Below, in pieces: positions 18,898 to 64,000 of a DNA stretch of 64,000 nt. The DNA lies in contig OX597814.1 in the NCBI GenBank assembly GCA_951406725.2, forward strand, positions 140,306,001 to 140,370,000, in the 5' to 3' direction. The translations under genes and the position numbers were made by a program. Position 1 is the first letter of the stretch; the number at the start of each line of letters is the position of its first letter. This DNA is from Octopus vulgaris (taxonomy: Eukaryota). A model generated the notes under the pieces. The model did not search any database and had not been told where the DNA came from. It saw only the letters and a list, made by a program, of their open reading frames with translations.

Positions 18898-19410
18898 CAG
18901 AGGTGGGGAAACATTTTAGTGTGGTGAGCAAATATTTACAAAGAAAAAAGTCTGTGGGTGGATCACAAGTTCTAACTCTGTGTAGATCTTGTATATATCT
19001 ATGTATAATTCGATATACATTAATAAAGATAAGTTTAGCACATTAAATTAATGCGTAACATCCTCATTAACACCACCACTGAATTTAGGACATCTATATT
19101 ACCTATGAGGTTTCTATATTTTTCAGCTAGAGTGCTATTGGGTCTCAAGGGGGTGGTACAAACCTAGCATTATATGTTTTATAGTGAAAACAAAATTTCC
19201 ATTCAAATGGCTGTTACCGGACAAGTTTCTGTTCTAGTTTAATTGTTTTATGTCGTAGTGGAAACATGACCTATGTCACAAATAGGCATATGAATACTGT
19301 ATAAATTTTATAATTGCAAAATTTACTATATTTTGTACATTACAAGTATATCAGCCTGTGGGCAAAATAAAATGGGCAATCGTGCCCATAGGTGGGGGTC
19401 CCCACCCCTG
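18898..19410. mobile_element. Non-autonomous hAT-type DNA transposon (MITE)
   Basis: TIRs CAGAGGTGGGGAA and GTCCCCACCCCTG; 8-bp TSD ctctagtc (18890-18897) / ctcaagtc (19411-19418). Confidence 0.85.
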
Positions 19411-19513
19411 CTCAAGTCACTTAGCTGGCAAAAATGAGTTGTACCTGTATTTCAAAGGGCCAGCCTTGTCATACTCTGTCACACTGAATCTCCCTGAGAA
19501 CTATGTTAAGGGT

Positions 19514-19585
19514 ATACGTGTGGTCTAGTGGTTAGGATTCCTGGCTTTCACCCAGGCGGCCCGGGTTCGATTCCCGGCATGGGAA
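19514..19585 (+). pseudogene. tRNA-Glu(TTC) retrocopy with a broken 5' acceptor stem
   Basis: tggtctagtggttaggattcctggcTTCacccaggcggcccgggttcgattcccggcatgggaa has intact D, anticodon (19547-19549) and T arms. Bases 1-3 read ATA instead of TCC. It is fused to a retroposon tail. Confidence 0.88.
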
Positions 19586-21065
19586 CGGCATTTCTGTTTA
19601 ATTGCGGTGCCCCAGCATGGCCGCAGCTCGTGAACTGAAACTAGATAAAATGATAAAATGATGTCTGTGGAGTGCTCGACCACTTGCATGTTAATTTCAC
19701 AAGCAGGCTGTTCCATTGACCAGATCAACTGGAACACTCATTGTCATAACCAACGGAGTGCTTATAATTATCAACACATGCACTCAAGTGTTAGAATTGG
19801 CAGCAGTTAAATTTTCTTTGTAGTTTCGGTTCAAATCCAGTCAAGGTCAATTTTGCCTTTCATCTTTACAGAGACAGTAAAATAATAGTTAAATAGCAGA
19901 GTGGCTAAGGGAATATAATCAACTATAGACACACAAAAACATGCACATGCACACACATTCATACACACATAAAAATATGTGGCCTTGTCCCTATATTAAG
20001 AATCAAAGGGAAAATCTGCCTAAGAATAGAGACCACATTGTAATTTTTTCCCCCATCAATACCAGATAAACCACTTATATATAGATGTGTTTCTCATGCT
20101 ACCACCATTTGTGCCTTCGGCAATGGAAATTAACTATACTTTCATTAACATTCACTAATTATGTTATGTACAGTCTGAGCTGCTAAGTGAGACTTTTTGA
20201 AAGTGTGTTGTCTATTCAAGAAAACACACACACACAAATTATGTACTGATATAATGAAAGAAAGAACTTTAAGATAATCCTTAGGAGATGGAAATAGCTA
20301 GCAAGATATGCAGAAATGTTATAAAATAACAATTCTTTTGAAATGTGAAAAGAAAAGTAAAACATTTTAGACTACATAATAAAATATAGATGAAAAATCT
20401 CAGAAGAAAATCATAAATTTTATAAAGAGAAATATTGAAAAAGATATTAATTGGCGGCTAAATGCAGTGATTTTGTTCTCAAAGTGACTAGGATTTATTC
20501 AAATAGCTCAGAAATAGCTGTGTAATTAAGAAATATGCTTCCCAACCATGTGGTTTTGAGTTCAGCCCCACTCTGCAATACCTTGGAAAACTGTCTTCTA
20601 TAGCCCATGGCTGACTAAAGCCTTGTAAGTGGATTAATAGATGGAAACTGAAAGAACCTTGCCATGTGTGTGTGTTTATTTCTACTCTAAAAATTTCTGA
20701 GCTACAAATAGTGATGTTACTATCAGTTGCCCTTTCAACAAATCATCTGCCCTTCAACAACTTACAAAATAAGAGATCCCTTACTGTAAAAAGAAAGGCA
20801 ACAGTTAGCAATAGATAGAGTATCTGGCTATAAAACAATCCCTCAATAATATATTCATCTAACTTGTGCTAGCTTTGAAAAACAGATGTAAAAGCAAATG
20901 AATTTACCTAGCAGAATTTAAACCAGTAGAGGAAGAAAATAAATTTTTATTATAATTGCAGAAATTGGTGTTAATATTTGTATTTTACTAAATCTTATTA
21001 TTACATTTCGTTTTTGTATTTGGTTTGCAAGAATCTTTATGTGAATTTGTGTGTTGAAGCATATT

Positions 21066-63789: not shown

Positions 63790-64000
63790 CAAATATGTAT
63801 ATTTATAATTATATATGTATGTATACATATAAATATATATATATAAATCCTTAAATACTTGAAAATGCTTTAGCCTGAAGGCGCGGCCATGCTGGGGCAC
63901 CACCATATATATATATATGAATATAAATATATATACACAGATATATGTATATATACAAATATTTATATATAGATATATATACAGATATTTATATATATAT

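Follow-up and report, generated by a model that had tools for sequence, protein, structure and literature searches.

How a tRNA head comes to carry a LINE tail is usually deduced from SINEs that are old and diverged. The closest precedent for the octopus elements described here is provided by the U6-L2 chimeras of platypus which, in the portion of PMC4476161 considered here, have a truncated head, a short LINE piece and duplications of 1-9 bp; the same portion cites template switching as a proposed route by which SINEs gain LINE tails. Like these chimeras, and like the U6/Mon-1 chimeras of platypus and the U6/LINE and U6/SINE chimeras of Anolis in that report, the octopus copies begin with a small-RNA head in sense orientation, in many cases lacking its 5' part, which is attached to a SINE or to a short stretch of LINE 3' end; they have small target duplications, and template switching is invoked for them. 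Unlike the platypus and Anolis chimeras, as far as that portion describes them, the octopus heads include 5S RNA and unprocessed tRNAs (with trailers, leaders and an apparent intron) that are traceable to single genes, the joint to the LINE is fixed within a few bases and the host is an invertebrate. Human U6/L1 chimeras of the RtcB type also join the 3' oligo-U of U6 to a 5'-truncated LINE, but in the passages of PMC6789731 drawn on here that truncation is variable, whereas in octopus the join falls at a fixed point, often with extra bases, and the partner is frequently a pre-tRNA. Human tRNA/L1 chimeras likewise insert tRNA sequence along with a LINE; the 21 loci in the relevant part of PMC11838501 are, however, mostly antisense tRNA halves and are ascribed to twin priming, while the octopus heads are in sense and have their 3' end and trailer intact. 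The bivalve SINE Vhc_1 (PMC4758252, in part) and octopus OR1/OR2 (as cited in parts of PMC4824008 and PMC4758252) share the combination of a Pol III head and a LINE 3' tail, yet unlike them the copy studied here has neither a body domain nor a shared master sequence, and no daughters were found among the loci inspected. By the distinction between a SINE family and a sum of independent chimeras, criteria for which appear in the part of PMC4494074 used here, the octopus tRNA/tail copies are the latter. An existing octopus repeat annotation lists, in the sections considered, recently active CR1 families and small U, U-L1 and 5S SINE classes (PMC13282606), and its repeat library may already hold some of these copies. 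In the literature searched, from which most subscription journals fell outside the scope, we found no account of LINE chimeras that combine a pre-tRNA in sense, a trailer specific to one gene and a fixed joint, and the octopus SINE and LINE literature within that search held no description of a pre-tRNA/LINE chimera system. U6/LINE chimeras are already known; what appears new in the literature searched is the fixed joint with gene-traceable pre-tRNAs.

The locus lies in a 64,000-nt stretch of the Octopus vulgaris genome (the window), where an inserted unit spans approximately positions 19519-19662 of the forward strand. Its head, at 19519-19585, is a tRNA-Glu(TTC) that is called by ARAGORN, scores 48.2 bits with Rfam, includes the discriminator but no CCA, and is identical over bases 6-72 to a tRNA-Glu gene (L122, C1:77562264). 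A 14-nt pre-tRNA 3' trailer follows at 19586-19599; it closes with three T, where a T4 terminator would have one more. At 19600, with no extra bases at the joint, begins a retroposon tail running to 19662 that corresponds to the last ~60 nt of a two-ORF LINE; it consists of the LINE 3' end (19600-19646), which starts at a 5'-end hotspot of that family and contains two predicted hairpins, and of the short terminal tandem repeat (19644-19662), related forms of which occur in LINE copies. Compared with one LINE copy (L302), the tail carries substitutions at 19603 and 19634 and is identical at 45 of 47 nt. The unit thus places a small-RNA copy 5' of a 5'-truncated LINE in matching orientation. The sequence-only reading had recognised an essentially unmutated, CCA-less tRNA-Glu(TTC), a trailer-like stretch, a retroposon tail and an interrupted host repeat, all of which are borne out, and among its alternatives was a one-off chimeric retrocopy of a pre-tRNA and a retroposon tail made by a template switch, which is the reading we also find most likely for this locus. 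It had counted only tRNA bases 1-3 as lost; the tRNA-Glu genes of this genome start TCCCATG, placing the loss at bases 1-5. With these bases missing and the first downstream T4 at 19812, the copy has neither the full acceptor stem nor the nearby T4+ of a functional tRNA gene. A Pol III transcript of the locus would be ~295 nt long and stop at 19812. We favour the interpretation, at a probability of roughly 0.72, that a single retrocopying event gave rise to the locus, a chimera of a pre-tRNA-Glu with the final ~60 nt of a LINE, for which a reverse transcriptase jumping between two RNAs during insertion is the likely cause.

The parent LINE is abundant. An internal 33-nt pattern from the tail has 2789 exact matches in the genome, and ten of the first 30 share upstream sequence that codes for the C-terminal region of a reverse transcriptase. 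Most of 16 long copies that we fetched have an ORF2 of ~1040 aa, five also have an ORF1 of 260-308 aa, and in all 16 the tail ends the element, ~25 nt past the ORF2 stop position. Pfam identifies Exo_endo_phos_2 and RVT_1 in ORF2 (1039 aa) and a CCCH finger in ORF1 (~300 aa). A separate ORF1, an ORF2 with apurinic-type endonuclease and reverse transcriptase, a short 3' UTR and a terminal tandem repeat are features of the CR1 group, to which, by motif resemblance, this LINE probably belongs; the best-scoring named homologue comes from Argonauta (62%). An RTE origin of the tail was dropped, as full-length LINE copies have two ORFs. A ribozyme in the tail was considered by eye and set aside; Rfam at E<=0.1 on positions 19000-20200 returned the tRNA and one sub-threshold chance match.

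The trailers connect dispersed tRNA-Glu copies to individual genes. A 48-nt tRNA pattern occurs at 90 exact places, which divide into 45 in a cluster on C10, seven dispersed loci classed as genes by eye, and 38 dispersed copies that are followed by repeat-like pieces and were selected on the tRNA alone. The C10 cluster (C10:81.83-81.97 Mb, L211-L230) holds 63 tRNA-Glu genes by ARAGORN (59 TTC and 4 CTC), whose bodies are nearly identical, whose short trailers and leaders are diverse and nearly all of which have a T-run. Among 59 dispersed tRNA-Glu copies, meaning those caught by the anchor (which missed L035), 23 reproduce the trailer of a gene without mismatch as far as its T-run (7 nt or longer), and 36 do so with at most one mismatch. 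A control with shuffled trailers, which holds only the first trailer base fixed and uses a gene set that includes the seven eye-picked dispersed genes, gave a mean of 0.8 exact matches and a maximum of five in 1000 shuffles. Each of the eight exactly matched trailer types seen at least twice has at least two classes of partner, and the full-length copies L134, L139, L140 and L002 have 4-6 leader bases in common with the matching gene. The heads were copied from primary transcripts, as the trailer matches up to the T-run, the leaders, the read-through of one chimera (L038) and the apparent intron of another (L083) document, and the trailers record tRNA genes that are likely transcribed in the germ line.

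For the window copy, the source gene itself is missing. Its trailer occurs at nine places genome-wide by pattern search, the window and eight others, and the check for a tRNA-Glu gene bearing it came back empty: no gene in the assembly has the exact trailer (0 of 9 places), and all nine are chimeras. Their partners are a short tail (three), one SINE (three), a second SINE (one), another repeat (one) and a read-through followed by a SINE (one), and the three short-tail copies differ in joint and tail subfamily. The nearest gene, L122, has a trailer that differs from the window's at three of 13 positions; the assembly thus lacks the allele or paralogue that was the exact source. The 30 kb surrounding L122 contain one gene and one local chimera. 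The ~70-nt read-through in L038 matches DNA downstream of L122, and the read-through pattern, with one mismatch allowed, has L038 itself as its sole match. At a distance of 1.4 kb from L122 stands a truncated tRNA-Glu chimera (L249, C1:77560886), which has a long read-through and carries a third variant of the window trailer.

Heads other than tRNA-Glu are found next to the same tail. In 20 loci picked by eye from 120, Rfam identified beside the tail U6 (L045 and L071), 5S RNA (L052 and L055) and tRNA (L056, L058, L083 and, weakly, L171), and no such Pol III RNA match in the other 12. The tRNA match in L083 is 113 nt long and, by eye, is an intron-containing, unspliced pre-tRNA. The U6-plus-tail pattern occurs at 18 exact places, some with truncated U6. 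Extra bases present in neither the T-run nor the LINE stand at 15 of these 18 joints, three being clean; in eight of the 15 they are the same CT, which a U6 gene could template. Several tRNA/tail joints also have extra bases, and tRNA-Glu trailers are joined as well to the apparent 5' starts of whole SINEs. The copies have independent origins, and the parent LINE is present and more numerous. The window locus is one among many separate chimera events with tRNA, U6, 5S and SINE partners, and the suggestion that it captures a unique birth of a SINE is not supported, given four kinds of partner for its trailer alone. At two further loci (L171 500-570 and L176), one tRNA-like RNA ending in a T-run joins the tail; the Rfam tRNA score at L171 is a weak 32 bits, and the shared head is either a Pol III transcript of another kind or a chimera that has copied itself. 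An ORF that starts shortly after the tail of another chimera (L033) may resemble a Penelope-like element.

The joint on the LINE side is fixed to within a few bases. A baseline was drawn from the 2789 exact matches by taking the first 90, which all lie on one chromosome arm of C1 and include two near-duplicate pairs; of these tails, 38 have their 5' end inside one 5-nt interval, 58 end at most 24 nt from the anchor and 32 are longer. The rate of stopping is 0.18 per nt at an AAA, versus 0.0045 per nt in the stretch that lies 17-100 nt upstream of the anchor, and A-runs farther upstream in the LINE show no peak of ends. For the tail variant found in the window, an eye count of 30 of its 31 copies gave 14 that end at the hotspot, 15 long and one shorter. 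Stand-alone tails truncated at the hotspot are common among the LINE copies. Many of the targets are (TA)n, and for non-chimeric copies microhomology with them may add to the peak. A direct join to the tail occurs in 15 of the 38 dispersed tRNA-Glu copies; all 15 lie at most 6 nt from the hotspot, and none of the 38 joins a longer piece of the parent LINE. By hand arithmetic, the chance of this for the 11 direct joins of the window's own tail family is ~0.42^11 = 7e-5, or 0.008 with the looser 58/90. In the four copies that we folded, the prediction leaves the hotspot unpaired, as a linker that separates an upstream stem from the two tail hairpins. Other types of short tail also occur on tRNA-Glu trailers (L138, L139 and L247; L024 and L027; L018, L022 and L028; L026; L233), and in each of these groups the tail begins at a similar distance from its own end; the similar starts suggest that other LINE families have a hotspot too. 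One stand-alone short tail of the L024/L027 type lies elsewhere in the window (63883-63901, minus strand) and adjoins a (TA)n run.

A template jump could account for these features as follows. The LINE protein would nick the target and prime on the terminal repeat; the reverse transcriptase would copy the two tail hairpins and lose its template at the unpaired AAA linker, either at an RNA end or by stopping there. Untemplated bases would then be added, of which an A could pair with the oligo-U 3' end of a nuclear pre-tRNA, and the enzyme would go on to copy trailer and tRNA, halt at base 6 and join the target through TGT. Template jumping by the R2 reverse transcriptase requires untemplated addition, according to the relevant part of PMC8857657. 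The main rival of the template jump is ligation at the RNA level, in which cleavage of the LINE RNA at the unpaired linker leaves a ~60-nt tail with a 5'-OH, an RtcB-type ligase attaches the 3' end of the small RNA there, and retrotransposition of the fused molecule follows. A nuclease cut suits a fixed joint at a site predicted to be unpaired, the joints in the window and in three of the 18 U6 cases are clean, and in human cells RtcB joins the 2',3'-cyclic phosphate of U6 to 5'-OH L1 RNA, as described in the portion of PMC6789731 drawn on here. Ligation sits poorly, however, with the extra bases seen in 15 of the 18 U6 joints and in several tRNA joints, and with the joining of the same trailers to apparent SINE 5' starts. 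As a Pol III product, a SINE 5' start should bear a triphosphate, and pre-tRNA trailers end in a 3'-OH, both of which count against a ligase of this kind. We regard ligation as improbable; the extra junction bases favour the template jump, although the window's clean joint alone cannot separate the two.

The surroundings of the unit indicate that head and tail arrived together. An older host repeat flanks the insertion, its left half at 19409-19518 (the 5' limit is approximate, matches in other copies beginning at 19409-19439) and its right half at 19662-19762, where the best other copies are 89-93% identical. In 19 other copies, examined from 40 scored among 2949 candidates, the left half is matched upstream of the right half in 18, and the match continues across the junction in 13, with a 3-nt overlap, TGT. 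This triplet, common to the host and to tRNA bases 6-8, stands at 19519-19521 and is repeated at 19662-19664; it takes the place of the CGTG microhomology proposed earlier for the 5' junction and is either a 3-bp target duplication or microhomology. Because the host halves are contiguous in other copies and TGT stands at both ends, the tRNA, trailer and tail form one insertion, and in a sister chimera (L037) a 16-bp duplication encloses head and partner together. The insertion shows two differences in ~128 nt while the closest copies of the host differ by 7-11%, and it is thus younger than the host repeat. Part of the locus is present in sequencing runs from several related organisms, and RNA runs matched small shares of its sequence words. 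The names given in the sequence-only reading to the host repeat ('family E') and to the SINE resembling the tail ('SINE B') are its own labels and are equated with no named families.

Two separate events could in principle produce a similar arrangement, either by a truncated LINE tail inserting first and a pre-tRNA retrocopy landing later at its 5' edge, or by a tail inserting into the terminator of a tRNA gene whose read-through RNA was then copied. Hotspot-truncated tails do commonly stand alone, two full-length tRNA copies (L233 and L234) could be genes with a downstream insertion, and nests of repeats of the L039 type occur. Against this, the parts in the window abut, with no host or LINE sequence between or before them, the trailers end at the terminator, and the L037 duplication surrounds head and partner together. 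Where genes share such trailers, their T-runs are intact and they carry no LINE tail, so that the earlier idea of a read-through chimera is not supported either. A two-step origin is accordingly very unlikely, and a single chimeric insertion remains the interpretation that we carry forward.

The window copy does have some attributes of a SINE. Its LINE-derived 3' tail (45 of 47 nt as in L302) and its tRNA-derived head, gene-identical over bases 6-72 and with an internal Pol III promoter, make the product, in which the promoter is kept, the terminator lost and a LINE recognition tail present, a would-be SINE. What the loci inspected do not show is amplification from a master, with the whole sequence and diagnostic changes shared. 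A 181-nt query yielded 1168 candidates, of which 40 were scored and the best 30 fetched; in these, head and tail align and the middle differs, the look-alike copies bearing varied gene-specific trailers and tails of differing LINE subfamilies. Neither these fetched loci nor 30 of the 31 copies of the window's tail variant include a daughter of the window copy, and the other 29 copies inspected of that variant (of 31) have neither a tRNA head nor the two private substitutions. The least probable reading, that one or a few masters gave rise by amplification to a very young SINE family, can draw on the likeness of head and tail in 28 of the 30 best loci fetched and on an intact internal promoter, but is largely refuted by a middle that varies among copies and tracks separate tRNA genes, by the disagreement in joint and tail subfamily of the three short-tail copies with the window trailer, and by the lack of daughters in 30 of 31 copies of the window's tail variant, so that gene-tracking trailers, differing tails and missing daughters together speak against it.

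The tail is closer to the LINE than to SINE B. The likeness noted earlier stands, the SINE-B-like tails in the window being 74-79% identical to the insertion's tail over its full length, and SINE B was rejected as the source of the tail, given that the LINE is far closer (45 of 47 nt). The similarity of SINE-B-type tails to the LINE may start at about the same AAA. In local alignments of SINE B with the LINE it begins at the hotspot in two of five cases and runs upstream through weak gapped matches in the other three, and the coincidence of the SINE-B tail boundary with the LINE hotspot is suggestive only. A second LINE type whose end is similar occurs at four exact places. As a tentative extension, we consider it possible that the parent LINE yields a defined ~60-nt RNA from its 3' end, whether the unpaired linker is cut site-specifically or imposes a programmed stop; this RNA would be mobilised alone and act as a launch pad onto Pol III oligo-U ends; the genome might then be a running SINE factory of terminator-less elements barcoded by their source genes, with the abundant SINE-B-type family as a past winner.

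The single locus in the window is ordinary within its genome, and it is the class with a fixed joint and gene barcodes that deserves attention. For one tRNA type, the genome offers dozens of independent, nearly unmutated head-plus-tail products that are traceable by their trailers and share one LINE joint, which makes it testable whether they arise by jump or ligation, which of them are transcribed and why almost none amplify. Such chimeras are also called as tRNA genes, as the window copy is by ARAGORN, and can be mistaken for a SINE family. Inverted arrangements occur at several loci. One truncated tRNA-trailer-tail chimera (L035, C16:49485931) has its tail and trailer repeated upstream in inverted form, which makes the locus a fold-back structure; at L085 (C1:11291843) an inverted repeat of the LINE's 3' region comes after its 3' end, and L075/L076 also form an inverted pair. 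On C28, reverse transcriptase copies of the parent LINE recur at a spacing of ~5.7 kb at 9.33-9.47 Mb and 22.74-22.77 Mb, as either a tandem array or a repeat-targeted cluster.
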